This document shows positions 12,147 through 56,352 of a DNA stretch of 64,000 bases, one piece after another. This stretch comes from a virus (taxonomy: Duplodnaviria > Heunggongvirae > Uroviricota > Caudoviricetes): the IMG/VR virus record IMGVR_UViG_3300029610_000240; one strand, written 5' to 3'. Made by a program: the position numbers and the translations under genes. The notes under the pieces were generated by a model, which was given only the letters and a program-made list of their open reading frames with translations, had not been told where the DNA came from and ran no database searches. How positions within the stretch are numbered: position 1 is the first letter of the stretch; each line of letters starts with the position of its first letter.

Positions 12147-12332
12147 GAAGGATGATTCCACAGTCTTTTGGCTGTGGGATTTTTGTATATCTTTAGAATT
12201 TTAGAATAATTTCATAAAATACGCATAAAATAAAAAATATGACACATATTGATAAAAAATATGATTTTTAGTATAATAAAGGAGTGTTATTTCGTGAATT
12301 ACGAATTTAAAATTTCAAGGGGGAAAGAGAAA

Positions 12333-19460: not shown

Positions 19461-19772
19461 ATGAAACAGTATATCGGAATAAAGGTTGTTGCTGCGAGAC
19501 CAATGACAAGAGGTGACTATAATATCTTTCGAGGATGGCAGATTCCGGCAGACGAAGATCCTGCCGATGAAGGATATGTGATGAAATACGAGAATGGACA
19601 TGTGCAATGGTTGCCAAAGGATATGTTTGAGTCTGACTATAAAGAATATGACGAGAGTACCCTGCCGGCAACAGCTATTGGTATGGTAAGTTCAGATTAC
19701 AAAGAATGTTTTCAGGCAGAGTACAAGCAGCTCAGAATTCGTTATGAAAAATTGAAGAGAATGCGTCAATAA
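19461..19772 (+). CDS. hypothetical small protein
   Basis: ATG at 19461 behind GGAGAAAGGAG. Its stop codon directly abuts the IscB element's left hairpin. Confidence 0.5.
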   Translation: MKQYIGIKVVAARPMTRGDYNIFRGWQIPADEDPADEGYVMKYENGHVQWLPKDMFESDYKEYDESTLPATAIGMVSSDYKECFQAEYKQLRIRYEKLKRMRQ

Positions 19773-20044
19773 CCCCGACCTACAGTAATAACTGTTGAGG
19801 TCGGAGCTTGTAAAAGCTCATATTGACTAGCCTAAGTTCTTCGAGAACTACGTTGTTTATGTTATCACACCTGCGAATGATACCATAGTTTGCAGCCTTG
19901 TGTAGGCTCTGTAAAAGTTCTGTGAGGTAGGAACGGTCAACCTAGTATGTTCGATCACGACAAGCATTTACAACATTGGCGAAGGGTAACAAACTTTCAA
20001 AAGAAAGGGACAGCACTTGAGAGTAGCTGTCAAAGGTAAAAACT
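19773..20044 (+). ncRNA. IscB omega-RNA region
   Basis: About 270 nt of non-coding, visibly GC-richer and hairpin-rich sequence immediately 5' of iscB, which is the known position of IscB omega-RNAs. Confidence 0.65.
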
Positions 20045-21319
20045 ATGAGAGTATTTGTATTCAATATGCGTGGCAGACCATTAATGCCATGCTCACAAAG
20101 AAAAGCCAGATTACTCCTAAGGGAAAATAAGGCTATGATTTATAAATATCATCCATTTACGATTCAGCTGACTTATACAACTGGAGAAACAAAGCAGGAC
20201 TGTCATATAGGTATAGACACAGGTTCTAAATATATAGGAGCTGCTGTCAGATCAGAGGATAAGGTTTTTTGGAAAGGCGAAATCGAGCTTCGACAGGATA
20301 TCAGGTCAAATCTTGATACGAAACGTATTTATCGCAGAAGCAGACGAAATCGTAAAACAAGATACCGAAAACCAAGGTTTTTAAATCGTAAGAGAAGAGA
20401 TGAATGGCTTCCACCTAGCTTGCAAAGCAGGATAAATCATACGTTTCATTGGATTGACACATTGAGTAGTTTGGTTCCAAACCCCATTCTTCACATAGAA
20501 GTCGGTAAGTTTGATGTAGCAAAGATGATAAATCCTGAAATCCATGGAGTTGACTATCAACATGGTCAGACATATGGTTTCTTCGATGAAAGGTATTTTG
20601 TTTTTGCAAGAGATAACTACACTTGTCAGTGCTGTGGAAAGTCAAAAAATAAGATTTTGAACACACATCATATCATCTACCGCAGTAATGGCGGAACAAA
20701 CAGAGTTGATAATCTTATTACAGTTTGCACAGATTGTCATACATCGCAGAATCACAGGAAAGGTGGAATATTCTATCAATGGCAGGAGCAGCATAAAAAG
20801 GTAAAACAATACAAAGAACCGCCGTTCATGAATACCTTACGTAAGAGGATATTTGTAGCGTATCCAGATGCTGAGATCACATATGGATCTGAAACAACAC
20901 CAAAACGTAAGGCGATGAAATTGGATAAGACGCACTATAATGATGCGATTGTCATTAGTGGTATCAATGAAATTAAAGAAAATCCTGAAGAATGGTTACT
21001 GATAAAACAATTCCGCAAAAAGAAACGCTCTTTACACGAGGCTACCGCCCGTAAGGGAAGAAAAAAGCCAAACAGAAATCAGACGCGTAACAGTAAGAAT
21101 ACGCCTTATTATAAAGGATTTTATCTTAACGATAAGGTTTCAGTTTTTGGAAAGAGTGGATATATTACAGGATTTACGAGCAATGCGGCATATATAAAAG
21201 ATGAGAACAATGACTATATTACTCTGCCAAACAAAACCTATAAACAGGTCAGCATCAATAAAATGAAGTTGGAATGTCATAACAACAATTGGCAGTACAT
21301 AATAAAAAATGCTGTGTAA
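20045..21319 (+). CDS. iscB: IscB RNA-guided nuclease (PLMP, split RuvC, HNH)
   Basis: PLMP motif (RGRPLMPC), RuvC-I IGIDTGSKYIGAAV, Arg-rich bridge RRSRRNRKTRYRKPRF, RuvC-II LHIEVGKFD, HNH CQCCGK..THHIIYRSNGGTNRVDNLITVCTDCH, RuvC-III HYNDAIV. Confidence 0.9.
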   Translation: MRVFVFNMRGRPLMPCSQRKARLLLRENKAMIYKYHPFTIQLTYTTGETKQDCHIGIDTGSKYIGAAVRSEDKVFWKGEIELRQDIRSNLDTKRIYRRSRRNRKTRYRKPRFLNRKRRDEWLPPSLQSRINHTFHWIDTLSSLVPNPILHIEVGKFDVAKMINPEIHGVDYQHGQTYGFFDERYFVFARDNYTCQCCGKSKNKILNTHHIIYRSNGGTNRVDNLITVCTDCHTSQNHRKGGIFYQWQEQHKKVKQYKEPPFMNTLRKRIFVAYPDAEITYGSETTPKRKAMKLDKTHYNDAIVISGINEIKENPEEWLLIKQFRKKKRSLHEATARKGRKKPNRNQTRNSKNTPYYKGFYLNDKVSVFGKSGYITGFTSNAAYIKDENNDYITLPNKTYKQVSINKMKLECHNNNWQYIIKNAV

Positions 21320-23446: not shown

Positions 23447-23600
23447 CATCCTCTCCCATCTATAGAGGTGGGAGCTTCCCTAACCTCGGCAGGTTTGGTT
23501 CTCGTTCGATAGCACCAATGTGCTAAGCTTAAGCGAGCTAACCCCGTGTGTCCCACGGTTGTATTATGTGAAATTGTGGTTATGCAGTTACTATCCGCAT
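23447..23600 (-). ncRNA. TnpB omega-RNA region
   Basis: Sequence overlapping and extending past the 3' end of tnpB, GC-richer than its surroundings, ending at the element-end hairpin. Confidence 0.55.
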
Positions 23601-24698
23601 TCCCTCATTTCTGATATTGATCGCTGCATTTACATCTCTGTCGTGATGGATTCCACACTGCGGACAATCCCACTGCCTGAGTGCAAGATCCTTTGTTTTC
23701 GCATTCTTGTAACCACAGGCAGAACACATCTGACTGCTTGCAAAAAATCTGTCCACTTTCACAAGTTTTTTCCCTTGTTCCTCAAGTTTATACTTTAGAA
23801 AGGCTGTGAACATTCCCCATCCATTATCCGAAACGGATTTTCCCAATTTCAACGACCGAGACATTGCTTTCATATCCAGATCCTCTATACATACACAATC
23901 ATAGGCATTGGTTATCTGTCTTGACTGCTTATGCAGAAAATCTTTTCGCTGATTGGAAACTTTTTCGTGAAGTTTGGCTACCTTGATTCTCTGTTTCCTG
24001 CGATTGTTCGAACCTTTCTGCATCTTGGAAAGTCTGCGTTGTTCTCTTGCTAATCTTTTCTCTGCGTTCCGGTAATATCCTGGATATGCCGGTTCATTGC
24101 CATTACTGTCACGATATAATCCGTGCATGGAAAAGTCCAGACCTAAAAAACTGTGCATCTCCTTTTCTGGTATCTGATCTTCATACTCAAAAAGGATACT
24201 TGCATAGTATCTTCCGCCTGGTGTCTGGCTGATCGTCACTGATTTCAACCTGTATCCCTTTGGAACAGATCTGTGCTGCTTTAATCGGACTTGTCCGATC
24301 TTTGGCAGTTTCAGATACCCATCCGATATGGTGATGTTGCCATTGATACATATGGTTGAATAGCTGTTTTTATGATTCTTTTTTGATTTGAACCTTGGAA
24401 ATCCTGTTTTCGGCCGTTTGAAAAAGTTCTGAAATGCTGTATCAAGGTGTCGGAGTGATTGCTGTAAGGATATACTATCGACTTCCCGCAAAAATGCGTA
24501 TTCTTCCGTTTTCTTCATTTCAGCCATTTCTTTCGCACAGACAGTATATGTTATATTTGTCTTGTTCTTCTTATACTGCCTGATCCTTCGATTAAGCCAA
24601 TGGTTGTACACCATTCTGACACAGCCGAAAGTCCTGGCAAACAGAATCATCTGCTCATTATTGGGATATATTCTGAATTTATATGCTCTGTTTGCCAT
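23580..24698 (-). CDS. tnpB: TnpB RNA-guided nuclease (IS605 OrfB type)
   Basis: N-terminal AYKFRIYPN..Q, RuvC D (GLDFSMHG), E (CIEDLDMK), Zn finger CSACGY..CPQCG, RuvC-III HDRDVNAAINI. Confidence 0.9.
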   Translation of the reverse strand: MANRAYKFRIYPNNEQMILFARTFGCVRMVYNHWLNRRIRQYKKNKTNITYTVCAKEMAEMKKTEEYAFLREVDSISLQQSLRHLDTAFQNFFKRPKTGFPRFKSKKNHKNSYSTICINGNITISDGYLKLPKIGQVRLKQHRSVPKGYRLKSVTISQTPGGRYYASILFEYEDQIPEKEMHSFLGLDFSMHGLYRDSNGNEPAYPGYYRNAEKRLAREQRRLSKMQKGSNNRRKQRIKVAKLHEKVSNQRKDFLHKQSRQITNAYDCVCIEDLDMKAMSRSLKLGKSVSDNGWGMFTAFLKYKLEEQGKKLVKVDRFFASSQMCSACGYKNAKTKDLALRQWDCPQCGIHHDRDVNAAINIRNEGMRIVTA

Positions 24699-25992: not shown

Positions 25993-26667
25993 ATGAAAGA
26001 GGTTTTGAAGAAAATGAAAATAAAATGTAGTAAAAAATTAAAGAAAACGCATTTGAGTGATGGTGCTTATAATTTGCTAATCGAAGCTATTGTACTATAC
26101 GGCTTATTAATCAATCTTATAACATGTGCATTTTTTGCGGATTATGTAGCTATGATTCCATTAAGAGCATTGGTGATTGGATACCTGCTCATTTCAATTA
26201 TTGGAATAGTAATGTTAACCAGATATAAGGCTGTCCTTGTAAAATTTGTTGGATATAACATGATTGTGATTCCATGTGGAATAACATTATCAACCATCAT
26301 CAGTGATTATGCTGGTAGATCTGATCTTGTATTGCAAGCATTGATCATTACAACTATGATCACTTTTTGTATGATTACTCTTAGTTGCATATTCCCAAAG
26401 TTTTTTGTAGGTATTGGGAAAATGCTTTTTGTAGCATTAGTAGGAGTTGTTATTGCATATGTCGTATGCTATTTTGTCGGATTAAATACAGGAATTATAG
26501 CATGGATTTCGGCAATTATTTTTTCCTTATATATTGGATACGATTTTGTTTCAGCACAGCAGGCTAAACATACAGTTGCAAACGCAATTATTTACGGGGC
26601 TGATATTTATTTGGATCTGGTCAATCTTTTTGTTGAGATTTTAAGAATTTTAAAAGATAACGATTAA
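25993..26667 (+). CDS. Bax-inhibitor-1/YccA-like membrane protein
   Basis: Seven hydrophobic helices and the C-terminal GADIYLDLVNLFVEILRIL pattern typical of BI-1 family proteins. Confidence 0.6.
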   Translation: MKEVLKKMKIKCSKKLKKTHLSDGAYNLLIEAIVLYGLLINLITCAFFADYVAMIPLRALVIGYLLISIIGIVMLTRYKAVLVKFVGYNMIVIPCGITLSTIISDYAGRSDLVLQALIITTMITFCMITLSCIFPKFFVGIGKMLFVALVGVVIAYVVCYFVGLNTGIIAWISAIIFSLYIGYDFVSAQQAKHTVANAIIYGADIYLDLVNLFVEILRILKDND

Positions 26668-32224: not shown

Positions 32225-32710
32225 ATGAAGCATATGATTATAAACACATTGATCATTATATTTTGGTTACTTGTAATTATTTACATACTTATAGAAAGTT
32301 ATATCTACGGCCCATTAACAGTACTATGTGGATGTGTTTTGGCAAGCATAATAGTAATTGCCGGCATAAAAATAGTAACGGGAATAGCCCCTAAAGGATG
32401 GATTAAAACATATACAACCGTAGCGACTGTATCAAAAAAATATACAAAAGATGATAAATATGGATAAGGTACCACAATAAGAGGGAAATATGAAATAACA
32501 GGTGTTCTACTATGTAGAAAATATTATATTGTTTTAAATGAGAATGGGAAAGATCATACATTTGAGATTCCTAAAAGCCAATACAATTCAATAAAGCTGA
32601 ACAGTCGTGTATTGTGTAAGATAAATTATAAAGAAAATAAAATTACAAAAATTAAAATGATCGATAAATCAAGAATTTTATATAATCCTTTCGTTCAAAA
32701 ACTTAGATAA
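32225..32710 (+). pseudogene. membrane protein gene with an in-frame TAA at 32465 (paralogue of 32905..33267)
   Basis: The frame continues 81 codons past the TAA with no restart codon. The combined product mirrors the paralogue: TM helices, DDKY, then a small beta-rich domain (KLNSRVLCKINY versus KIGDKVLCNVY). Confidence 0.45.
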
Positions 32711-32730
32711 CGTAACTATAAAGAGATTCA

Positions 32731-32802
32731 TGATGATGACTTAATTGATGATTTAAGACAAAGTTTTAAAAATATGTAACAGATATATGTAAAAACAAAT
32801 GG
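32731..32802 (+). CRISPR. guide module A: one spacer-like segment plus one repeat
   Basis: Repeat GTTTTAAAAATATGTAACAGATATATGTAAAAACAAATGG (32763..32802), preceded by TGATGATGACTTAATTGATGATTTAAGACAAA. Confidence 0.6.
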
Positions 32803-32804
32803 CA

Positions 32805-32872
32805 GTTACATAATGCGTAAGAATAAGAATGTATCGAATAAGTCTATATAAGTAGAATCTACCAGGTGGTAG
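32805..32872 (+). ncRNA. tracrRNA-like scaffold A
   Basis: Anti-repeat GTTACATAATGCGTAAGAAT pairs with ATATGTAAC of the repeat. Nexus AAGAATGTATCGAAT. Hairpins TCTA/TAGA and CTACC-AGG-TGGTAG (32859..32872). Confidence 0.65.
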
Positions 32873-32904
32873 AAAATATTAAAACTAACAGGAGATAATA
32901 TTTC

Positions 32905-33267
32905 ATGGACACAGAAGATTTAATTGAAAAAAAGGTAAATATCATGATTTTACTATGTATCATGATGATAATGTTGGCTATGCTTCCCCGTATGGTTAAC
33001 CAGGTAATAAAAATTTGTAACTATAAACAAACAGCTTCTCTAAATGTGGATGATAAATATTACCAAAATTCTCGCTGGGGAAACAGCTATAAAATTGTTA
33101 TTAATTGTCATGATGAAGAAAAAGAAATTGCAGTTTCAGAAAAAGAATTTCACGCAATTAAAATCGGAGATAAAGTATTGTGTAATGTATATCGTTCAGC
33201 AAATCAAGTTGTAACTGTAGAATTAAATGAACATTGGAAAGACGCAGGTGACAAGTATGATAACTAA
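32905..33267 (+). CDS. small membrane-anchored protein
   Basis: RBS AGGAGA and one TM helix. Paralogue of 32225..32710. Confidence 0.55.
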   Translation: MDTEDLIEKKVNIMILLCIMMIMLAMLPRMVNQVIKICNYKQTASLNVDDKYYQNSRWGNSYKIVINCHDEEKEIAVSEKEFHAIKIGDKVLCNVYRSANQVVTVELNEHWKDAGDKYDN

Positions 33268-33730
33268 TTCAAAAAAATGGAACGATCCTGATTATTATGA
33301 AGAAAATTTCGTAAATATCATTTACGACAAACTTACAGAAGGAATGGGTTTGTCAAAAGATGAAAGAAAAAGCCTTTTGGATTTGCTTCTTAATCAAAGA
33401 CACGATCCGATGTATTATGACATTATTTGCCAAGAGTTTAAAAATCATTTATTTAAAGAGGAAGTAAGAACTATTTTTAGACTGAATGGTAAGTATTTTG
33501 AGATTCGTTGGATTCGCAAAAATGAATCTTTTGATGAACCAGATGAATTCCCTAATGATCCAATAGAGGTAGTAAAAACAACAAGGGTTGTAAAGGAATG
33601 GGTTGCAAAATCTGATCAGTATAATTTTGATCCCGTTCTTTTAAAGGAGCAAAAAGCAAAATTGCAAAAATATCTAAAAAAAATTGATTGTATTTTGGAT
33701 ATATTAGAAATGGAAAAAATGGATTACTAA
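33257..33730 (+). CDS. hypothetical protein, paralogue of 33806..34147
   Basis: WNDPDYYEENFVNIIYDKLTEGMGLSKDE..KYFEIRW versus WDDRDYYDEHFYDIMYDKITEGMKLTVDE..KYFEIRW. Confidence 0.55.
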   Translation: MITNSKKWNDPDYYEENFVNIIYDKLTEGMGLSKDERKSLLDLLLNQRHDPMYYDIICQEFKNHLFKEEVRTIFRLNGKYFEIRWIRKNESFDEPDEFPNDPIEVVKTTRVVKEWVAKSDQYNFDPVLLKEQKAKLQKYLKKIDCILDILEMEKMDY

Positions 33731-33805
33731 AGCAGACTGAAAAAAATTAGTCATTTATTAGTTTGTAATAATACAAAATAAGATAATTGAAAGGAGAAGC
33801 AGCTA

Positions 33806-36133: not shown

Positions 36134-36277
36134 GTTTTGTAATCGTGTAAAAGCACTTAAATATGCTGTAGAAGATGTTTTGTTACTGTGCAACGGAAAT
36201 ATGTCTAAATGATTTAATTTATTACTACTTTTTATTCCTTTGTTTTGTAACCGTGTAACGGAGACATGTCTAAATGG
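36134..36277 (+). CRISPR. guide module B mini-array (3 repeats)
   Basis: Repeats at 36134..36165 (decayed), 36177..36212 and 36242..36277 (GTTTTGTAACCGTGTAACGGAGACATGTCTAAATGG). Spacers are 11 nt and 29 nt (TTTAATTTATTACTACTTTTTATTCCTTT). Confidence 0.7.
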
Positions 36278-36356
36278 TCAAATTATTTTGCACGGTGCGT
36301 AAAAATAAGAAATTATCGAATAGGCTCGTTAAAACGAGAGCTGCCGTGTGGCAGTA
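36278..36356 (+). ncRNA. tracrRNA-like scaffold B
   Basis: TCAAATTATT linker. Anti-repeat TTGCACGGTGCGTAAAAAT pairs with ACCGTGTAA. Nexus AAGAAATTATCGAAT. Hairpins CTCGT-TAAA-ACGAG and CTGCC-GTGT-GGCAG. Confidence 0.75.
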
Positions 36357-36499
36357 AATCTAAGCTACATCAATTTCAAGATTATAATTTGGGAGGAGAA
36401 AATGTTTGGGAAAATTAATGTTTTTTATTTATTGTTGGCTATATATTTGTATTATTTGTTATATTCTTGCAGCCAAGAACAAGAAAGAAGGTGTAGTGT

Positions 36500-46126: not shown

Positions 46127-49100
46127 GTGCAGAATGGATTTTTAGGAATAACTGTTAGTAGTGAACAGGTTGGTTGGGCAGTTACAAATCCCAAATATGA
46201 GTTAGAACGTGCATCTCGAAAAGATTTATGGGGTGTAAGGCTTTTTGATAAAGCAGAAACAGCGGAAGATCGAAGAATGTTCCGTACAAACAGACGATTA
46301 AATCAGAGAAAAAAGAACAGAATACATTATCTTAGAGATATTTTCCATGAGGAAGTAAATCAAAAAGATCCTAACTTTTTTCAGCAATTAGATGAAAGCA
46401 ATTTCTGTGAAGATGATCGTACTGTAGAGTTTAATTTTGATACTAATCTTTATAAGAATCAGTTTCCAACAGTGTATCATTTAAGAAAATATCTAATGGA
46501 AACAAAAGATAAACCAGATATTCGTCTGGTATACTTAGCTTTTTCAAAATTTATGAAAAATCGAGGACATTTCTTATACAAAGGAAATCTTGGAGAGGTT
46601 ATGGACTTTGAAAATTCCATGAAAGGCTTTTGTGAAAGTTTAGAGAAATTTAATATTGACTTCCCTACATTATCAGATGAACAGGTAAAAGAAGTCCGAG
46701 ATATCTTATGTGATCATAAAATTGCTAAAACTGTGAAAAAGAAAAACATCATTACTATTACAAAAGTAAAAAGTAAGACAGCAAAAGCATGGATTGGACT
46801 GTTTTGTGGTTGCAGCGTTCCTGTTAAAGTATTATTTCAGGATATCGATGAAGAAATTGTAACGGATCCAGAAAAAATCTCATTTGAAGATGCTTCTTAT
46901 GATGATTGTATTGCAAATATTGAAAAGGGTGTCGGTATTTATTATGAAGCTATTGTTTCTGCAAAGATGCTTTTTGACTGGTCTATCCTGAATGAAATTT
47001 TAGGTGACCATCAGTTATTAAGTGATGCAATGATCGCAGAATACAATAAGCATCATGATGATTTAAAGCGTTTACAGAAGATCATTAAAGGAACTGGCAG
47101 TAGAGAATTATATCAGGATATCTTTATTAATGATGTTTCTGGAAATTATGTATGCTACGTTGGTCATGCAAAAACAATGAGTAGTGCAGATCAGAAACAG
47201 TTTTATACATTTTTAAAAAATCGATTAAAAAATGTGAATGGTATTTCATCAGAAGATGCAGAATGGATTGATACAGAGATTAAAAACGGTACTTTACTAC
47301 CAAAACAGACAAAACGTGATAACAGTGTTATTCCGCATCAATTACAGTTAAGGGAATTTGAATTAATTCTTGATAACATGCAGGAAATGTATCCATTCTT
47401 AAAAGAAAACAGAGAAAAATTATTAAAAATCTTCAATTTCGTTATTCCTTATTATGTAGGTCCGCTAAAGGGCGTTGTAAGAAAAGGAGAGAGTACAAAC
47501 TGGATGGTGCCTAAAAAAGATGGTGTGATTCATCCATGGAATTTCGATGAAATGGTAGACAAAGAAGCGTCTGCGGAATGTTTTATTTCCCGAATGACAG
47601 GAAATTGTAGTTATTTATTTAATGAAAAAGTTCTTCCAAAGAATTCTCTTCTTTATGAGACATTTGAGGTATTAAATGAGCTAAATCCATTAAAGATCAA
47701 TGGAGAACCTATCAGCGTGGAATTAAAACAGAGAATTTATGAACAGCTTTTCTTGACAGGGAAAAAAGTTACAAAAAAATCTCTGACAAAATATCTTATC
47801 AAGAATGGCTATGACAAAGATATTGAATTATCAGGTATTGATAATGAATTTCACAGCAATCTAAAATCTCATATTGATTTTGAGGATTACGATAATCTAT
47901 CTGATGAAGAAGTTGAACAGATTATTCTTAGAATTACAGTATTTGAAGATAAGCAGCTGTTAAAAGATTATTTAAATCGCGAGTTTGTAAAGCTCTCTGA
48001 GGATGAGAGAAAACAGATTTGCTCATTATCTTATAAAGGATGGGGAAACTTATCAGAAATGCTATTAAACGGTATTACTGTAACAGATTCCAATGGTGTA
48101 GAAGTTTCTGTAATGGATATGCTGTGGAATACAAACTTAAATCTGATGCAGATCTTAAGTAAGAAATATGGATATAAAGCAGAAATCGAACATTACAATA
48201 AAGAACATGAAAAAACCATTTATAATCGTGAAGATTTGATGGATTATTTAAATATTCCACCGGCTCAGCGTAGGAAGGTAAATCAGCTGATTACGATAGT
48301 AAAATCTCTCAAAAAGACATATGGAGTTCCAAATAAGATTTTCTTCAAAATAAGCAGAGAACATCAGGATGATCCAAAGAGAACTTCATCCAGAAAAGAA
48401 CAGCTAAAATATTTATACAAATCCTTAAAATCAGAAGATGAAAAACATCTTATGAAAGAGCTTGATGAATTGAACGATCATGAATTATCCAATGATAAAG
48501 TTTATCTTTATTTTCTACAGAAAGGACGCTGCATTTATTCTGGCAAGAAATTAAATCTTTCAAGATTAAGAAAATCTAATTATCAGAATGATATTGACTA
48601 CATTTATCCATTATCTGCAGTAAATGATCGTTCTATGAATAATAAGGTATTAACGGGAATCCAGGAGAATCGAGCAGACAAGTATACCTATTTTCCAGTT
48701 GATTCAGAAATTCAGAAAAAAATGAAGGGATTTTGGATGGAACTGGTTCTGCAGGGATTTATGACAAAGGAGAAATACTTCCGATTATCCAGAGAAAATG
48801 ATTTTTCAAAGAGCGAACTTGTTAGCTTTATTGAACGTGAAATTTCAGATAATCAGCAAAGTGGAAGAATGATTGCTTCTGTATTACAGTATTATTTCCC
48901 TGAATCAAAGATTGTATTTGTAAAAGAAAAGCTGATTTCTTCCTTTAAGAGGGATTTCCATTTAATTAGTAGTTATGGTCACAATCATTTACAAGCTGCA
49001 AAAGATGCTTATATTACGATTGTAGTTGGAAATGTATATCATACAAAATTTACAATGGACCCAGCAATCTATTTTAAGAATCATAAGAGAAAAGATTATG

Positions 49101-50065
49101 ATCTGAACCGATTATTCTTAGAAAATATCAGCAGAGATGGACAGATTGCATGGGAAAGTGGTCCATATGGGTCAATTCAGACGGTTCGAAAAGAATATGC
49201 TCAAAACCATATTGCTGTTACAAAAAGAGTCGTGGAAGTAAAAGGCGGCTTATTTAAGCAGATGCCATTAAAAAAAGGACATGGCGAATATCCATTAAAA
49301 ACCAATGATCCTAGATTTGGCAATATCGCACAGTATGGAGGGTATACGAATGTCACAGGTTCCTATTTTGTATTAGTAGAATCAATGGAGAAAGGGAAAA
49401 AACGTATTTCTTTAGAATATGTTCCAGTATATCTTCATGAGCGTTTAGAGGATGATCCTGGACATAAACTGTTAAAAGAATATCTGGTTGATCACAGAAA
49501 ACTTAATCATCCAAAGATTTTACTTGCAAAAGTAAGAAAAAACTCATTACTTAAGATTGACGGTTTTTATTATCGTTTAAATGGTCGAAGTGGAAATGCT
49601 CTTATCCTTACAAATGCAGTGGAATTGATCATGGATGACTGGCAGACAAAAACAGCAAACAAGATTTCTGGATACATGAAACGCAGAGCTATTGATAAGA
49701 AAGCAAGGGTTTATCAAAATGAATTCCATATTCAGGAATTAGAACAGCTTTATGATTTTTATTTAGATAAATTAGAGAATGGTGTTTATAAAAATCGTAA
49801 GAATAATCAGGCTGAATTAATTCACAACGAAAAAGAACAGTTTATGGAACTCAAGACAGAAGATCAGTGTGTATTATTGACTGAGATTAAAAAGCTTTTT
49901 GTATGTTCTCCAATGCAGGCAGACCTTACATTGATTGGTGGCAGCAAACACACAGGAATGATTGCTATGTCAAGCAATGTTACAAAAGCAGATTTTGCAG
50001 TCATTGCGGAAGATCCTTTAGGACTTAGAAACAAAGTAATTTATTCTCATAAAGGTGAGAAGTAA
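46127..50065 (+). CDS. cas9: Cas9 homologue (type II-A-like size) with substituted RuvC and HNH catalytic residues
   Basis: GTG start 7 nt after AAGGAGGA. Conserved: bridge helix RRMFRTNRRLNQRKKNRIHYLRDIF, FPTVYHLRKYL, NRGHFLYKG, IPHQLQL, IPYYVGPL, PWNFDEMVDKEASAECFISRMT, YKGWGNLS. Catalytic columns: LGITVSSEQVGWAV (D10 is T), IFFKISREHQ (E762 is K), DIDYIYPLS (H840 is Y), QAAKDAYITIVVG (H983 is A, D986 kept). Confidence 0.9.
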   Translation: MQNGFLGITVSSEQVGWAVTNPKYELERASRKDLWGVRLFDKAETAEDRRMFRTNRRLNQRKKNRIHYLRDIFHEEVNQKDPNFFQQLDESNFCEDDRTVEFNFDTNLYKNQFPTVYHLRKYLMETKDKPDIRLVYLAFSKFMKNRGHFLYKGNLGEVMDFENSMKGFCESLEKFNIDFPTLSDEQVKEVRDILCDHKIAKTVKKKNIITITKVKSKTAKAWIGLFCGCSVPVKVLFQDIDEEIVTDPEKISFEDASYDDCIANIEKGVGIYYEAIVSAKMLFDWSILNEILGDHQLLSDAMIAEYNKHHDDLKRLQKIIKGTGSRELYQDIFINDVSGNYVCYVGHAKTMSSADQKQFYTFLKNRLKNVNGISSEDAEWIDTEIKNGTLLPKQTKRDNSVIPHQLQLREFELILDNMQEMYPFLKENREKLLKIFNFVIPYYVGPLKGVVRKGESTNWMVPKKDGVIHPWNFDEMVDKEASAECFISRMTGNCSYLFNEKVLPKNSLLYETFEVLNELNPLKINGEPISVELKQRIYEQLFLTGKKVTKKSLTKYLIKNGYDKDIELSGIDNEFHSNLKSHIDFEDYDNLSDEEVEQIILRITVFEDKQLLKDYLNREFVKLSEDERKQICSLSYKGWGNLSEMLLNGITVTDSNGVEVSVMDMLWNTNLNLMQILSKKYGYKAEIEHYNKEHEKTIYNREDLMDYLNIPPAQRRKVNQLITIVKSLKKTYGVPNKIFFKISREHQDDPKRTSSRKEQLKYLYKSLKSEDEKHLMKELDELNDHELSNDKVYLYFLQKGRCIYSGKKLNLSRLRKSNYQNDIDYIYPLSAVNDRSMNNKVLTGIQENRADKYTYFPVDSEIQKKMKGFWMELVLQGFMTKEKYFRLSRENDFSKSELVSFIEREISDNQQSGRMIASVLQYYFPESKIVFVKEKLISSFKRDFHLISSYGHNHLQAAKDAYITIVVGNVYHTKFTMDPAIYFKNHKRKDYDLNRLFLENISRDGQIAWESGPYGSIQTVRKEYAQNHIAVTKRVVEVKGGLFKQMPLKKGHGEYPLKTNDPRFGNIAQYGGYTNVTGSYFVLVESMEKGKKRISLEYVPVYLHERLEDDPGHKLLKEYLVDHRKLNHPKILLAKVRKNSLLKIDGFYYRLNGRSGNALILTNAVELIMDDWQTKTANKISGYMKRRAIDKKARVYQNEFHIQELEQLYDFYLDKLENGVYKNRKNNQAELIHNEKEQFMELKTEDQCVLLTEIKKLFVCSPMQADLTLIGGSKHTGMIAMSSNVTKADFAVIAEDPLGLRNKVIYSHKGEK

Positions 50066-50106
50066 GTTTTCATATTTGTTCGGAAAATTCATAATCATAT
50101 CGAACG

Positions 50107-50259
50107 GCTTTGGAACTGCGTAGAACATGATATGTCTTATGGCTAAAAGAATTACAGGTGCATATTTTGAACTGTGTAAAACATGGCATATGGGAGAATT
50201 GGCAACGACTGGAACAGAACACAGTTTTGAAACTGTATAAAACATGACATGTCTTATGG
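50107..50259 (+). CRISPR. guide module C mini-array (3 repeats), starting 42 nt after the cas9 stop
   Basis: Repeats at 50107..50142 (6 mismatches), 50164..50193 (30 nt, decayed) and 50224..50259 (GTTTTGAAACTGTATAAAACATGACATGTCTTATGG). Spacers: 21 nt CTAAAAGAATTACAGGTGCAT and 30 nt GAGAATTGGCAACGACTGGAACAGAACACA. Confidence 0.75.
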
Positions 50260-50336
50260 TTCAAATTATTTATACAGTACGTGAAAATAAGAAATTATCG
50301 AATAAACTCGTTTAGACGAGAACTGCTAGAGGCAGT
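50260..50336 (+). ncRNA. tracrRNA-like scaffold C
   Basis: Anti-repeat TTTATACAGTACGTGAAAAT gives a 10-bp perfect pairing with ACTGTATAAA. Nexus AAGAAATTATCGAAT. Hairpins CTCGT-TTAG-ACGAG and CTGC-TAGAG-GCAG (50323..50335). Confidence 0.8.
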
Positions 50337-50352
50337 AATTGCAGAAAATGTC

Positions 50353-50385
50353 ATGAACCCCAAGCGACTTCGTCGGCCGGGGGTT
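50353..50385 (+). terminator. GC-rich hairpin after module C
   Basis: AACCCC..CGAC-TTC-GTCG..GGGGTT nested stem followed by a short T run. Confidence 0.45.
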
Positions 50386-50448
50386 TACGCACCAATTTGA
50401 TAATATTTCTAATCATATATTACCTTATATGATTAATGGAGAAAATAG

Positions 50449-50957: not shown

Positions 50958-50961
50958 TGTT

Positions 50962-51117
50962 ATTTTGAGAAATGATTGCAAATGTGATCGTAGCGTACCT
51001 TACTTCACAGCTTAGTTTTGGAACTATGTAAAATCAAATGATTGCAAATGGGCAGAGAGAAAATTTGAAAAATTGTCTGTGTTTTGGAACTATGTAAAAT
51101 CAAATGATTGCAAATGG
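50962..51117 (+). CRISPR. guide module D mini-array (3 repeats)
   Basis: Repeats at 50962..50985 (internally deleted), 51015..51051 and 51081..51117 (GTTTTGGAACTATGTAAAATCAAATGATTGCAAATGG). Spacers: GATCGTAGCGTACCTTACTTCACAGCTTA and GCAGAGAGAAAATTTGAAAAATTGTCTGT. Confidence 0.8.
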
Positions 51118-51193
51118 TCAAAGTAATTGCATGGCGTGTAAAAATAAGAATTTATCGAAATAATTTGCTCCGGCGAAATCTGCAAGATGCAGA
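51118..51193 (+). ncRNA. tracrRNA-like scaffold D
   Basis: TCAAAGTAA linker. Anti-repeat TTGCATGGCGTGTAAAAAT pairs with CTATGTAA through two G:U. Nexus AAGAATTTATCGAAAT. Hairpins TTTGC-TCCG-GCGAA and TCTGC-AAGA-TGCAGA. Confidence 0.75.
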
Positions 51194-51197
51194 AATC

Positions 51198-51265
51198 AAG
51201 CTGATCGATGCTTTACATATTTATCTATTTCAATATTTCTTCAACCATATACATTGATCAGCTTT
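51198..51265 (+). terminator. long-loop inverted repeat with AGCTGATC core (possible terminator)
   Basis: AAGCTGATCGATG pairs with CATTGATCAGCTT (13 bp, one G:U) around a 42-nt loop. A related element lies at 54054..54131. Confidence 0.4.
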
Positions 51266-51290
51266 AATAAAAAGAATTAAAATTACGAAA

Positions 51291-51445
51291 ATAAAATTGA
51301 ATGATTCCAATGGATAGTCGAAAAAGAATTGGATAGTCGACGGGTTTTAGAATAGTGTAAAATTGAATGATTCTAAGGGTTAGATACTCCACTAGATAGC
51401 AAAGTACTTGTTTTAGAATAGTGTAAAATTAAATGATTCTAAGGG
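51291..51445 (+). CRISPR. guide module E mini-array (3 repeats)
   Basis: Repeats at 51292..51313 (3' half only), 51344..51379 (GTTTTAGAATAGTGTAAAATTGAATGATTCTAAGGG) and 51410..51445. Spacers: ATAGTCGAAAAAGAATTGGATAGTCGACGG and TTAGATACTCCACTAGATAGCAAAGTACTT. Confidence 0.8.
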
Positions 51446-51528
51446 GTCAAATAGATTCTATACAATGCGTGAAAATAAGAAACTTATCGAACAAACCTGT
51501 GTAGGAAACAGGAACTGCCGAGGGCAGT
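51446..51528 (+). ncRNA. tracrRNA-like scaffold E
   Basis: GTCAAATAGAT linker, anti-repeat TCTATACAATGCGTGAAAAT, nexus AAGAAACTTATCGAAC. Hairpins CCTGT-GTAGGAA-ACAGG and CTGCC-GAG-GGCAG (51515..51527). Confidence 0.75.
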
Positions 51529-51823
51529 AAAAATAAAAAGCATATTTTTATTATGTTTTATTTTATGATGAAGAGGTGGATGATGGTTCTATCTCTGTTT
51601 TTGAGAAAATGGATGCATTGCAAAATGCAACAATCTTAGAAGTACAAATACATATTGATGACTTAAAAGATAAATTGGAAGAAGTAAAATTTACTCTTAA
51701 AATATCAGGTTTGTATTTGAAGAAGATAATTTTATGGATTCTTATTATAAATCTTATACGTTACCGATTGTATATCACAAAAACTATTTATTAAGTATTA
51801 ACAATGATAAGGAATAACAATAA

Positions 51824-53755
51824 ATGGAAATAGATTACAGAAAAGAATTAAATAAGAGTCAATATGAAGCTGTTACAACGACAGAAGGACCAGTCCTAAT
51901 CCTTGCCGGTGCCGGAACTGGCAAAACTCGTTGTATGGTATATCGTGTGGCATATCTGATTGAAAAAGGCGTGTCACCCAATAATATCTTATTATTGACC
52001 TTTACAAATAAAGCAGCAAATGAAATGAAGCAAAGGGCAGCAGATATGCTTGATGAACGATGTAGTCAAATTACTGCATGTACATATCATTCATTCTGTG
52101 CAAAGATGCTTCGCAAATATTCACAACTGATTGGAATTCAATCAGATTATACAATTATTGATCCGGGAGATTGTGCAGATATCATATCGATCATCGAAAC
52201 AGAACACGGTATGGATAAAGTAAAAGATTTTCCAAGATCATCTCAACTGGTATCAGCACATAGCAAAGCCTTAAATACGAATCAGTCATTAGAGGATACT
52301 TTGTTTGATATGCTCGGTAAATGGAAGTATATGGAAATCGAAAGATTCATTCCAGATATAAAGAAAATCTTAGCGGATTATCAATCATACAAAAAACAAA
52401 ACAACATGATGGATTATGATGATTTGCTAATCAATTTTATATCTGTATTGAAAAGAAACCCTTCTATAAAGAATAAATTAGCTGATATTTATCAGTATAT
52501 TATGATCGACGAATATCAGGATTCTAATTATTTACAGGAAAAGATTATTTTTATGTTACGTGAAAAGAATCGTAACTTAGCAGTGGTAGGTGATGATTAC
52601 CAATGCATCTATGGATTTAGAGGAAGTATGGTAGAAAATATCATTAATTTTCCACAAAAGATGTCCGGATGTAAAGTTGTTTACTTAACACAGAATTATC
52701 GCAGCAATCAAGAGATCATGGATTTATCCAATATTGTTATGAAAAAACATTCACTGGAAGGTTTTTTTAAAAAGCTTGTCGCAACTCATGTGGCCAATAT
52801 TCAGCCATTGCTAGTTCGATCAGAGGACGAGGGCGAAGAAGCTTCTTATATTTTAAATAAGATTATGGCATTACATGATGAAGAAGAGATTCCGTATCAT
52901 GAAATTTGTGTTCTTGAAAGAAGTTCTTATCATTCTGTAAGACTAGAAGCACTTTTAAATAAAATGAAAATCCCATATGACAAATATGGTGGAATGAAGT
53001 TTTTTGATTATGATCATATCAAAAACTTCTTATGCTTTTTGCGATGTCAGATAAATCCACATGATGAAATTGCGTGGTTTCGACTATTAAAGTTATTTGA
53101 TGGTATTGGAAATGTTTATGCCAGAAATATCGCAGCAACATGTAAAACTCTTGGATTAGAGGGACTTGTTCAACACAAATACATAAAAAGAAAATTTCAG
53201 CCGGATCTTGAAAATTTAAAGAGTTTTATTGAAAAGCTTAATGATCAAGATTTTCAGATCGAATTGCAAAGCATTAAATCATTTTATTCACGTTTAATGG
53301 ACATTACATTAATGCTGATGAAAACATCGGAGAAGAAACGTAGGGAGCTTGCTAGAGCAAATAAACAAGCGGTCCGCGATTTTGATACACTGATTGAAAT
53401 GGCAGATGGATATGATTCTCCAGTGACATTTCTGGAAGAAATAATGCTTGAAGCCAGTCCTCAGAAAGAGGAAGAGGAAGATCGAATGGTTATATCTACA
53501 ATTCATTCCGCAAAAGGCTTAGAGTTTCACTCTGTTTTTGTTATGAACTGCGTAGATACAATGTTTCCATCTACAGATAAAGATCAGATTGGAACAGTAG
53601 AAGATAACGAAGAGTTGAGATGCTTCTATGTGGCAATAACACGGGCAAAAGAACGATTATTTTTAATGGCACCGAAATATATAGCCAAATTTGGATGTGT
53701 TGAAGAGGGAATTATCTCCCATTTTATTAGTGATGTTTTTCAAGTAAAGGAGTAA
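51824..53755 (+). CDS. UvrD/PcrA-type SF1 DNA helicase
   Basis: Walker A AGAGTGKT, motif II IMIDEYQDSN, QNYRSNQEI, late STIHSAKGLEF and FYVAITRAKERL. Confidence 0.85.
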   Translation: MEIDYRKELNKSQYEAVTTTEGPVLILAGAGTGKTRCMVYRVAYLIEKGVSPNNILLLTFTNKAANEMKQRAADMLDERCSQITACTYHSFCAKMLRKYSQLIGIQSDYTIIDPGDCADIISIIETEHGMDKVKDFPRSSQLVSAHSKALNTNQSLEDTLFDMLGKWKYMEIERFIPDIKKILADYQSYKKQNNMMDYDDLLINFISVLKRNPSIKNKLADIYQYIMIDEYQDSNYLQEKIIFMLREKNRNLAVVGDDYQCIYGFRGSMVENIINFPQKMSGCKVVYLTQNYRSNQEIMDLSNIVMKKHSLEGFFKKLVATHVANIQPLLVRSEDEGEEASYILNKIMALHDEEEIPYHEICVLERSSYHSVRLEALLNKMKIPYDKYGGMKFFDYDHIKNFLCFLRCQINPHDEIAWFRLLKLFDGIGNVYARNIAATCKTLGLEGLVQHKYIKRKFQPDLENLKSFIEKLNDQDFQIELQSIKSFYSRLMDITLMLMKTSEKKRRELARANKQAVRDFDTLIEMADGYDSPVTFLEEIMLEASPQKEEEEDRMVISTIHSAKGLEFHSVFVMNCVDTMFPSTDKDQIGTVEDNEELRCFYVAITRAKERLFLMAPKYIAKFGCVEEGIISHFISDVFQVKE

Positions 53756-53791: not shown

Positions 53792-53965
53792 GATTTGAAT
53801 CCATGTAAAAATGTAAAGCAAATGATTCCAAATGGCAATCTTCTCGAATTGTCGTGTAGGCAAAGTTTTGAAACCATGTAAAAAAATGATTCCAAATGGG
53901 TATGCATTGGTGTTTGAAGCGTTTGTGTGTTTTGGAACCATGTAAAAGCAAATGATTCCAAATGG
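53792..53965 (+). CRISPR. guide module F mini-array (3 repeats)
   Basis: Repeats at 53792..53835 (internal duplication), 53865..53899 (2-nt deletion) and 53929..53965 (GTTTTGGAACCATGTAAAAGCAAATGATTCCAAATGG). Spacers: CAATCTTCTCGAATTGTCGTGTAGGCAAA and GTATGCATTGGTGTTTGAAGCGTTTGTGT. Confidence 0.8.
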
Positions 53966-54043
53966 TTAAAAGCAGATTACATGGTGTGTCAAAATAAGAA
54001 CTTATCGAATAGATCTATATAAATGGAATCTGCCAGGTGGCAG
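53966..54043 (+). ncRNA. tracrRNA-like scaffold F
   Basis: Anti-repeat TTACATGGTGTGTCAAAAT gives a 9-bp perfect pairing with ACCATGTAA. Nexus AAGAACTTATCGAAT. Hairpin 2 CTGCC-AGGT-GGCAG (54030..54043). Hairpin 1 is weak and resembles that of scaffold A. Confidence 0.75.
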
Positions 54044-54053
54044 AAAAAAACTG

Positions 54054-54131
54054 AAAAAGCTGATCAATAATAACTGTTGTTACCATAATATTAATTTATG
54101 TTTTTGTATTTTGTCTATTGATCAGCTTTTT
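54054..54131 (+). terminator. 16-bp perfect long-loop inverted repeat with AGCTGATC core
   Basis: AAAAAGCTGATCAATA pairs perfectly with TATTGATCAGCTTTTT around a 46-nt loop. Confidence 0.5.
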
Positions 54132-55543: not shown

Positions 55544-55570
55544 GTTTCAGAAGTTTATAAAAACAGATAA
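55544..55570 (+). CRISPR. guide module G: single divergent repeat
   Basis: GTTTCAGAAGTTTATAAAAACAGATAA, preceded by the candidate guide GAGACACTTTCATGTATAGTGGAGTTTA. Confidence 0.5.
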
Positions 55571-55580
55571 CTATTAATGA

Positions 55581-55658
55581 TTATCTGTTTCATGGATTGT
55601 GTAAAAATAAGCAAATTAGCGAATATGCTCGTTGAAACGAGAGCTGTTAGATAACAGC
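55581..55658 (+). ncRNA. tracrRNA-like scaffold G
   Basis: TTATCTGTTT pairs perfectly with AAACAGATAA across a 10-nt loop. GATTGTGTAAAAAT, nexus variant AAGCAAATTAGCGAAT. Hairpins CTCGT-TGAA-ACGAG and GCTGTTA-GA-TAACAGC. Confidence 0.6.
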
Positions 55659-55710
55659 TAAAAATGTAACTATATAAATTAATTTGTAAATTATAGGGAG
55701 GACTATTTTA

Positions 55711-56094: not shown

Positions 56095-56249
56095 ACAGAA
56101 GAATCATTGTCGATGTTAAACATATTATGTGAAACATTATTGTCAGGCTTTAGAAGTCTATAAAACAGAATCATTGTCAATGAGATCAAATTCTTTATGA
56201 CAACGCAATACAGCTTTAGAAGTCTATAAAACAGAATCATTGTCAATGG
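56095..56249 (+). CRISPR. guide module H mini-array (3 repeats)
   Basis: Repeats at 56095..56115 (3' half only), 56147..56183 and 56213..56249 (GCTTTAGAAGTCTATAAAACAGAATCATTGTCAATGG). Spacers: TTAAACATATTATGTGAAACATTATTGTCAG and GATCAAATTCTTTATGACAACGCAATACA. Confidence 0.8.
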
Positions 56250-56325
56250 TCAAATAAGCAGACTGCGTAAAAATAAGAATTTTATCGATATTGCTCGTGT
56301 AGTCGAGAACTGCCAAGTGGCAGCA
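56250..56325 (+). ncRNA. tracrRNA-like scaffold H
   Basis: TCAAATAAG linker, anti-repeat CAGACTGCGTAAAAAT, nexus AAGAATTTTATCGAT. Hairpins CTCG-TGTAGT-CGAG and CTGCC-AAGT-GGCAG (56310..56323). The next gene's RBS follows 18 nt later. Confidence 0.75.
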
Positions 56326-56352
56326 ACATTTATAATAAAAAGGAGGAATTAT

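Follow-up and report, generated by a model that had tools for sequence, protein, structure and literature searches.

What can a short repeat array do on a mobile element whose Cas9 appears to have lost both of its nuclease sites? We address this question for positions 53,792 to 54,131 of a 64,000-nucleotide (nt) stretch of DNA, here called the window, from the IMG/VR virus record IMGVR_UViG_3300029610_000240 (Caudoviricetes). The locus, module F, is one of eight related modules and lies directly 3' of a UvrD-type helicase gene, as an earlier interpretation made from the letters alone (the sequence-only reading) had stated; the open reading frame (ORF) of the helicase ends 36 nt before the first repeat. 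Module F is a miniature CRISPR array with a trans-activating CRISPR RNA (tracrRNA) of its own, from which only a 12-nt linker separates the last repeat. We put the probability that the RNA of module F guides a nuclease-dead Cas9 in binding-only anti-phage interference, resembling CRISPR interference (CRISPRi), at roughly 0.6.

Module F and its tracrRNA

The three repeats proposed by the sequence-only reading are present (R1, R2, and R3, within 53792-53964; Table 1), and so are the two lesions it had described: an internal duplication of 7 nt in R1 (ATGTAAAA followed by ATGTAAAG) and a deletion of 2 nt in R2, where 'GC' is missing. Its division into repeats and spacers stands apart from one base. 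The 'G' that it had added after ...AAATG belongs to the spacer, because this base varies between relatives, and the true repeat is 36 nt long and ends in ...AAATG. Both spacers measure 30 nt, and in the sister modules and in relatives the period is exactly 66 nt (36 + 30). The repeat family had no match in 100 shuffles. An intra-repeat hairpin (GGAACCAT..ATGGTTCC) was rejected as a conserved RNA structure, with 72% of positions paired versus 71% in shuffles, and the inverted termini that CRISPR repeats usually have explain this partial palindrome better. In every repeat, conservation is highest in a core, (C/T)ATGTAAAA(T) (e.g., 53940-53948), similar to a TG-extended -10 box (TAAAAT). As in the type II-C repeats of Neisseria and Campylobacter, each repeat might hold its own promoter, which might suit an array that gains spacers at its 3' end.

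The sequence downstream of R3 matches RAGATH-30, a motif that Rfam lists as a small RNA without stating a function (RF03055; Weinberg et al. 2017). The match in module F covers model positions 1 to 59 of 59 and scores 76.4 bits (gathering score, 59.5; E = 9e-13). At the curated Rfam thresholds the window holds eight matches (32817, 36299, 50281, 51138, 51469, 53988, 55601, and 56267), all on the + strand, full length, and about 20 nt past a repeat. The family consensus, GUAAAAAUAAGAAuUUAUCGAA plus a hairpin and CUGCC..GGCAG, has the layout of a Cas9 tracrRNA 3' of its anti-repeat, namely, a lower-stem strand, AAAAUAAG with the nexus, and two hairpins. We read RAGATH-30 as the 3' two-thirds of a tracrRNA, in which the conserved 5' part regarded as 'unpaired' is the lower-stem strand together with the nexus. 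This scaffold of nexus and 3' hairpins is encoded at the cas9 locus, with cas9 3.7 kb upstream of module F.

The perfect 9-bp upper stem noted previously, ACCATGTAA (53937-53945) with TTACATGGT (53977-53985), is also predicted by the minimum free energy (MFE) fold of spacer 2, R3, and the tracrRNA, which recovers the repeat:anti-repeat duplex. We counted base pairs of the structure resembling a single-guide RNA (sgRNA) in an alignment of 25 distinct modules from 10 elements (the window and nine related elements; alignment A2). Ninety-one percent of cells are paired, compared with 33 to 52% when the partners are slid, and 15 of 26 pairs show compensatory changes, a value reached in 0 of 500 shuffles. 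Such changes affect 5 of the 9 pairs of the repeat:anti-repeat upper stem and all five pairs of hairpin 1; after AAAAUAAG, the nexus forms a G-C/A-U stem whose A-U pair turns into C-G in module G. The RAGATH-30 layout, the covariation, and the duplex in the MFE fold thus identify module F as an array fused to a tracrRNA. Its array-tracrRNA junction would amount to a natural sgRNA, a prediction from sequence and fold. The sequence-only reading had spoken of related repeat-plus-hairpin modules; it was right about the modularity and the stem but did not name what the modules are.

RAGATH-30 has no match, even at E <= 0.01, at the locus of the nearest active type II-A relative (L015), whose tracrRNA lies upstream of cas9. 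The idea that RAGATH-30 is the general tracrRNA of this Cas9 subfamily is ruled out for L015, the one active relative tested. Because L015 has no match, RAGATH-30 is, in the data seen, a scaffold specific to the clade of the dead Cas9.

A Cas9 with replaced catalytic residues and arrays with spacer turnover

The window Cas9 shows the domains of a type II-A protein in Pfam (Cas9_REC, PF16592, 1.5e-138; Cas9_PI, PF16595, 2e-57; bridge helix; HNH_4), finds its best solved structure in 9jwk (E = 7e-216), and is 32% identical to SpCas9 over 1199 aa (BLASTP). Catalytic residues were compared by BLASTP against SpCas9 and in a MAFFT alignment with five active relatives. D10 is replaced by T in RuvC-I (GITVSS versus GLD[IML]G[TS] in the active relatives), E762 by K in RuvC-II (FFKISRE versus F[IV]EMAR), and H983 by A in RuvC-III, where D986 is kept; in HNH, H840 is replaced by Y (DIDYIYP versus DIDHI[YF]P). 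The protein lacks the competent RuvC and HNH sites of type II-A, and the replaced residues predict that it is nuclease-dead.

This Cas9 belongs to a small, isolated clade whose members are 100%, 89%, and 71 to 74% identical to the window protein, all with RuvC changes; except in P0020, the HNH histidine is not retained either. The next relatives are ordinary Cas9s with only ~42% identity. In sixteen ~97% identical variants (P0003-P0018, 1151 to 1159 aa), ~155 aa comprising the entire HNH domain are cleanly deleted, and elements with HNH-less variants (loci L011 and L012) still carry six RAGATH-30 modules with spacers of their own. In five lineages all ORFs are full length and free of frameshifts, the ratio of nonsynonymous to synonymous substitution rates (dN/dS) is 0.06 to 0.11 at dS of ~0.7 to 2.6, and purifying selection acts strongly on the REC and PI lobes. 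Because the ORFs stay full length and dN/dS is this low, the clade is not decaying. The Cas9 is the likely protein partner of all eight modules.

Spacer content was compared among twelve elements that are 97 to 100% identical (the window, two IMG/VR contigs, and nine metagenome contigs). Conservation extends over flanks, repeats, and tracrRNAs, but the spacers bear no relation to one another (window, L001, L002, L011, and L038-L043), and 68 distinct spacers were counted in total. Module F alone has at least six different spacer sets of one to four spacers each, with L001, L011, and L038-L043 differing from the window at spacer 1; all relatives compared retain the damaged copy of R1. Three human-gut contigs (L035-L037) have spacers S1 and S2 of the window plus a third spacer, TGTGATACCTATTGAATTTATAAATCCTAT, and a perfect repeat, and this added 66-nt unit is inserted between R3 and the tracrRNA. 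The other modules behave similarly. Module C of L002 has one tracr-proximal spacer more than that of L001, module D has its common spacers distally and its differing spacers proximally, and the distal spacer of module E occurs in 12 of 12 elements, where it is gathering point mutations. Distal spacers are thus conserved and decaying, and units have been lost or duplicated internally in L038, L039, and L041.

New spacer-repeat units enter next to the tracrRNA. Since they appear there, the damaged R1 and R2 mark the old end of the array, to which nothing is added, and the duplication in R1 and the deletion in R2 reflect the usual decay of the oldest repeats rather than a design specific to this module. 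In two instances, identical spacers lie in modules with different repeat types: CTGAAATATG[A/G]CTGCTGTTTTTTTATATGT is found in module B of L001 (1767-1795) and module E of L040, and TATCATGAATATAATCAAAATGATTCTAGT in a B-type module of L018 (- strand) and in module F of L038 and L041. Such sharing points either to two independent acquisitions from one protospacer or to an exchange of spacers among modules.

The linker beside the entry site starts with GTCAAAT in most modules, and T38, C39, A40, A41, and A42 of alignment A2 are at least 90% conserved. Read on the opposite strand this motif is ATTTGAC, and the leader of L015 ends in ATTTGAG directly before the first repeat (junction ATTTGAG-GTTTGAG). 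In type II-A systems a leader-anchoring sequence with a GAG end directs integration (PMC7999890). By analogy, the linker may be a leader anchor in inverted orientation, used by an integrase acting in trans. Modules A and G, which never have spacers, lack the ATTTGAC/GTCAAAT motif. No Cas1, Cas2, or Csn2 was found among the window ORFs scanned (all ORFs of at least ~270 aa included), and cas1-cas2-csn2 is absent next to cas9 in the 64-kb window and in the locus of every clade relative; the active relatives L015 and L016 have the usual order cas9-cas1-cas2-csn2-array.

Proposed binding-only interference and its alternatives

Phage targets were found for spacers of sister modules. Spacer 1 of module D matches IMG/VR contig 3300029819_000255 at 30/30 positions and three related contigs at 29/30, within a MazF-like gene that adjoins an exonuclease gene. 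For a spacer of L003, four IMG/VR contigs match at 30/30, inside an exonuclease gene (phrog_69) with neighboring genes for a Gp2.5-like single-stranded DNA-binding protein and a DNA polymerase, and a spacer of L007 matches a faecal 'Bacteriophage sp.' contig at 28/30. Concatenated spacers (40 + 22 against INPHARED, 40 against PLSDB) gave one weak phage match, and the module F spacers of L001 and L011 had no target in IMG/VR. A search of spacers and pseudo-spacers for self-targeting in the window and the fetched loci returned only self-array matches and one AT-rich match of 22/24. The latter, between a module B spacer (36213-36241) and the opposite strand at the start of a Bax1-I-like gene (26019-26042), is PAM-distal (PAM, protospacer-adjacent motif) and probably due to chance.

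We propose that the mini-array and its tracrRNA, 12 nt downstream on the + strand, would be transcribed together. The last repeat would then fold back on the anti-repeat through a lower stem (GUUUUGG/UCAAAAU), a bulge, and the 9-bp upper stem, followed by the nexus and two hairpins, so that the newest spacer would be born as a natural sgRNA; upstream spacer-repeat units could pair in trans with the tracrRNA part. The module RNA would most likely load the Cas9 encoded 3.7 kb upstream, which keeps the RNA-, DNA-, and PAM-binding lobes and is predicted to lack RuvC and HNH catalysis, and the complex would bind its targets uncut. The targets known so far are genes of gut-phage replication modules; binding could silence them or keep early and replication genes from being transcribed or replicated, and both the mobile element and Anaerostipes hadrus, which hosts it, would gain CRISPRi-like immunity or exclusion. 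Spacers would probably be inserted by a type II-A Cas1-Cas2-Csn2 supplied in trans and guided by the leader-anchor-like motif in the linker, while the old distal repeats R1 and R2 decay. The perfect 16-bp inverted repeat that closes the locus, preceded by an A-run and followed by a T-run, is probably a (bidirectional) terminator of module F.

Several points weigh against binding-only interference by module F. Neither S1 nor S2 has a protospacer in INPHARED, PLSDB, or IMG/VR (22-mers), and a metagenome search with a 21-mer of S1 matched only the same array. The 3' flanks of the three protospacers (AGAAGTT, CAAACTC, and ACACGGC; n = 3) show no clear PAM, and their orientation is mixed, two on the non-template and one on the template strand. 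Joint transcription is predicted from sequence, and no sigma-70-like promoter was found upstream of the array on the + strand. The loss of catalysis is deduced from residues, and one clade member, P0020, retains the HNH histidine. Among 40 window ORFs, capsid, terminase, and conjugation genes are missing and all that is seen is cargo, so that the element may be a prophage or an integrative or conjugative element.

A more ambitious version of this proposal is correspondingly tentative, and we rate it at somewhat less than even odds. The locus may be an adaptive type II system with a non-cutting Cas9 that still acquires phage spacers and defends, or excludes rivals, through DNA binding alone. 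The tracrRNA gene would serve as the 'leader,' a new spacer would be expressed at once as an sgRNA, and the eight cassettes would have diverged, mutually matching repeat/anti-repeat pairs.

The turnover of spacers without linked adaptation genes suggests that some host type II machinery is present, and the module RNAs might then be used mainly by an active host Cas9, with the dead Cas9 in another role such as PAM selection during acquisition. For type II-A, Cas9 is reportedly needed for PAM-specific acquisition while its nuclease activity is dispensable (Heler et al. 2015), which would fit such a role. Yet RAGATH-30 always accompanies the dead clade and is missing from the active relative's locus, the ~42% identity of the nearest active Cas9s makes cross-loading doubtful, and the strong selection on the dead protein's REC and PI lobes would be hard to reconcile with this division of labor, which we regard as unlikely.

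Only slightly less plausible, and likewise unlikely, is gene regulation, in which the dead Cas9 would repress element or host genes in a programmable manner, as in autoregulation by the long tracrRNA isoform tracr-L or by small CRISPR-associated RNA (scaRNA). The single-repeat modules A and G (and L009a/b and L007a) indeed have fixed 'pseudo-spacers' conserved between relatives, module H spacers are conserved, and nuclease-dead effectors are well suited to such a task. However, no spacer or pseudo-spacer matches at least 25 nt elsewhere in the 64-kb window, about one-third of the ~200-kb element, or in the fetched loci (best, 22/24), and most spacers differ between near-identical elements, a pattern that fits an arms race better than fixed regulation.

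We consider it improbable that the dead Cas9 and the tracrRNA variants are an anti-CRISPR decoy that soaks up host CRISPR RNAs (crRNAs) and thereby shields the element from CRISPR immunity of the host, as proposed for phage II-C2. There is a precedent in a phage whose Cas9 has a dead RuvC domain and whose tracrRNA matches host repeats (PMC10910872; PMC12669027), and the anti-repeats of the eight tracrRNAs differ enough that they might serve for several repeat types. Each anti-repeat, however, covaries with the repeat of its own array, and the cassettes have their own spacers with quick turnover and phage matches, whereas II-C2 lacks arrays. A decaying relic, that is, a pseudogenised type II locus with drifting arrays and tracrRNA copies, would account for the lost catalytic residues, the missing adaptation genes, and the degenerate R1 and R2, but is very improbable and already contradicted by the selection and covariation data, given dN/dS of 0.06 to 0.11 without frameshifts in five lineages, the occurrence of the protein on at least 1000 contigs, the exact addition of 66-nt units whose repeats are perfect, and compensatory changes that keep the RNA helices.

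Sister modules, the element, and known CRISPR-Cas systems

Table 1. Features of module F and associated loci in the window
Feature	Coordinates	Strand	Description
Module A	32763..32875	+	Single degenerate repeat + tracrRNA, no spacer; sister of F in 3' hairpins
Module B	36134..36357	+	Array + tracrRNA
Cas9 gene	46127..50065	+	1312 aa, type II-A-like, both nuclease sites mutated (Pfam, BLASTP, MAFFT)
Module C	50106..50338	+	Directly after cas9 stop codon
Module D	50960..51195	+	Spacer 1 TGATCGTAGCGTACCTTACTTCACAGCTTA at 50985-51014
Module E	51290..51530	+	Array-tracrRNA module
UvrD-type helicase gene	51824..53755	+	UvrD-helicase 4.6e-74, UvrD_C 1.1e-53 (Pfam)
Module F, repeat R1	53792..53834	+	43 nt; degenerate, oldest, tracr-distal; 7-nt duplication, 5' substitutions
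Module F, spacer 1	53835..53864	+	GCAATCTTCTCGAATTGTCGTGTAGGCAAA, 30 nt
Module F, repeat R2	53865..53898	+	34 nt; 2-nt deletion, G->A at position 7
Module F, spacer 2	53899..53928	+	GGTATGCATTGGTGTTTGAAGCGTTTGTGT, 30 nt; newest spacer in the window, predicted guide of the fused single-guide-like RNA
Module F, repeat R3	53929..53964	+	36 nt; intact, terminal; first 17 nt pair with anti-repeat
Module F, linker	53965..53976	+	GTTAAAAGCAGA, 12 nt between R3 and tracrRNA; proposed neighbor of new-spacer entry site
Module F, anti-repeat of tracrRNA	53977..53995	+	TTACATGGT upper stem, GTG bulge, TCAAAAT lower stem
Module F, RAGATH-30 (RF03055) match	53988..54046	+	Lower-stem strand, nexus, hairpin 1, hairpin 2
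Module F, nexus	53996-54009	+	AAGAACTTATCGAA; within RAGATH-30 match
Module F, hairpin 1	54014-54027	+	TCTATATAAATGGA, TCTAT-ATAA-ATGGA, weak; within RAGATH-30 match
Module F, hairpin 2	54030-54043	+	CTGCC-AGGT-GGCAG; within RAGATH-30 match
Perfect 16-bp inverted repeat	54054..54131	.	AAAAAGCTGATCAATA / TATTGATCAGCTTTTT, encloses 46 nt; A-run before, T-run after; probable terminator
Module G	55544..55660	+	Single repeat + tracrRNA; invariant in relatives; without GTCAAAT linker
Module H	56095..56326	+	Array + tracrRNA, conserved spacer

Hairpin 1 of module F resembles only that of module A (TCTATATAAGTAGA, at 32.8 kb), 21 kb upstream, as had been noted; the stems of the other six modules are CTCG..CGAG, TTTGC..GCAAA, or CCTGT..ACAGG. 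The common descent of A and F drawn from this likeness holds for the two 3' hairpins but not for the repeat or for the anti-repeat plus nexus. When the modules were aligned and a tree was built, module A was 83 to 86% identical in the 3' hairpins to F and its orthologue and at most 67% to any other module, and bootstrap support for A+F reached 85% with the tracrRNA part, compared with 0% both for the repeat and for the anti-repeat plus nexus. Module A sits on a 1.37-kb segment (32374-33740), together with two small ORFs (32905-33267 and 33227-33730), that is absent from the closest relatives, L017 and L022, which are otherwise collinear, and is thus an indel. Module A is probably a recent, partly recombinant (mosaic) copy that lost its array.

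Other modules and their flanks show further variation. A 39-nt G+C-rich insertion (...AACCCCAAGCGACTTCGTCGGCCGGGGGTTTACG..., 50353-50391) lies 3' of module C, is missing from L001 and L002, and can form a hairpin. Palindromes built on AGCTGATCA/TGATCAGCT, with 40 to 46 nt of AT-rich sequence enclosed, occur 3' of modules F (54054-54131) and D (51204-51268) and of some modules in L003, L007, and L020; they are candidate terminators or protein-binding sites. In the 89% and 73% relatives (L009, 4228-4366; L007, 8608-8778), the cassette after cas9 is a single repeat plus tracrRNA whose guide would be a fixed sequence just 3' of the stop codon, possibly an autoregulatory guide similar to that of tracr-L.

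The UvrD helicase adjoins the dead Cas9 in relatives with at least 89% identity and not in the 73% relatives. Gene order in the relatives is peptidase, ATLF, dead cas9, modules, UvrD, cell-wall hydrolase, DUF6906, Tn916-type Xis, and Int, beyond which lie host genes for a CsoR-like repressor and a Cu-ATPase; the element is therefore integrative. IMG/VR classes contigs of 200 to 222 kb of the element and of a sister lineage as viral. The 90% protein cluster of the Cas9 comprises 2780 sequences and was seen on at least 1000 contigs. One member, WP_044924278.1, bears the annotation of an ordinary A. hadrus Cas9; the host is taken from the cluster names, and the metagenome matches come from the human gut. 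Neither the dead Cas9 nor the tracrRNA core GTNAAAATAAGAANTTATCGAA had a match in GTDB species-representative genomes, and the 11-kb region from cas9 to module H had none among INPHARED phages or PLSDB plasmids (megablast).

Pfam and PHROG scans of 40 window ORFs identified adhesins, a restriction-modification system, IscB, TnpB, an endolysin-like hydrolase, and integrases. A HEARO RNA (IscB omega-RNA, RF02033, 112 bits) followed by an IscB-type ORF (RRXRR + HNH, 424 aa) at 19765-21319 is a second RNA-guided nuclease system on the dead-Cas9 element; ISC2 elements have been noted in A. hadrus (PMC4810608). A TnpB / IS605 OrfB gene (OrfB_IS605, Cas12f1-like TNB, helix-turn-helix; 23580-24698, - strand) represents a third RNA-guided nuclease family within 30 kb. 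The restriction-modification pair consists of an Eco57I/N6-type methylase (13979-15370) and a BsuBI/PstI-type endonuclease (15367-16359), with an AAA_21 (AbiEii-like) ATPase upstream (12249-13451). Two very large surface proteins are encoded at 231-4673 and 7513-11232: an LPXTG-anchored SpaA/Cna_B adhesin and a transglutaminase-like/Big_2 protein with 117-nt tandem Cys-containing repeats (8674-10607).

We regard the system as a previously undescribed variant of type II CRISPR-Cas. A search of the open literature returned no account of RAGATH-30, of a natural or phage nuclease-dead Cas9 (dCas9), or of a tracrRNA in Anaerostipes. dCas9 and the sgRNA are laboratory inventions, and the locus suggests natural counterparts of both. 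The orphan Rfam motif RAGATH-30 would gain a function as part of a tracrRNA, and the polarity of acquisition is inverted, with spacers entering at the 3', tracr-proximal end, raising the question of how an element without cas1 and cas2 keeps eight arrays up to date. The protein is common and present in A. hadrus isolates (WP_044924278.1), so that experiments are feasible, and it may offer a naturally optimised dCas9 scaffold.

With type II-A systems (S. pyogenes and Clostridia, e.g., L015), the locus shares the REC, bridge-helix, HNH-fold, and PI domains, a 36-nt repeat that starts with GTTTT, a 30-nt spacer, a tracrRNA with lower stem, bulge, upper stem, AAAAUAAG with the nexus, and 3' hairpins, and an ATTTGA(G/C) motif beside the repeat where spacers enter. 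It differs in its mutated or deleted nuclease sites, in the lack of cas1-cas2-csn2 nearby, and in having eight scattered mini-arrays, each with its own tracrRNA fused downstream on the same strand. Moreover, acquisition takes place at the 3' (tracr) end and not at the 5' leader end, and the anti-repeat covers ~17 to 20 nt of the repeat.

II-C2 systems (Altae-Tran et al. 2023; Makarova et al. 2025) combine a phage II-C Cas9 with dead RuvC and active HNH, no array, and an SNF2 helicase, and are proposed to hijack host crRNAs (PMC10910872; PMC12669027). Like them, the locus has a nuclease-disabled Cas9, carried by a mobile element or virus, together with a tracrRNA of its own and a nearby helicase gene, but none of the features that define II-C2 (II-C Cas9, active HNH, no array, SNF2 helicase) is found in the window system: the protein is II-A-like with HNH also dead or deleted, the helicase is of the UvrD type, and there are many arrays with phage-matching spacers. 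In the 2025 CRISPR classification as searched, II-C2 alone among type II variants has a nuclease domain that is inactivated, and no binding-only type II is listed.

In type V-M (Cas12m), V-C, and plasmid IV-A systems, nuclease-less RNA-guided DNA binding blocks transcription or replication, as predicted here, and these systems too are often found on mobile elements, often without adaptation genes, and aimed at rival elements. They belong, however, to the Cas12 or Csf/DinG families, and we know of no tracrRNA-fused arrays among them. If our interpretation is true, type II would have in this locus its first counterpart to binding-only IV-A and V-M systems. The tracr-L RNA of S. pyogenes (Workman et al. 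2021) likewise unites an anti-repeat with a repeat-like segment and folds into an sgRNA with which Cas9 binds without cutting, as predicted for module F; tracr-L, however, is a long isoform of the sole tracrRNA and matches the cas promoter over a fixed 11 nt, whereas the guide of module F would come from the array-tracrRNA junction and be a full, exchangeable 30-nt spacer. Finally, unlike solitary repeat units or RNA anti-CRISPRs, which are stand-alone repeats that mimic those of the host and have no spacers, tracrRNA, or effector of their own, module F has spacers, a tracrRNA, and a cognate Cas9, and even the single-repeat modules A and G are each still fused to a tracrRNA.

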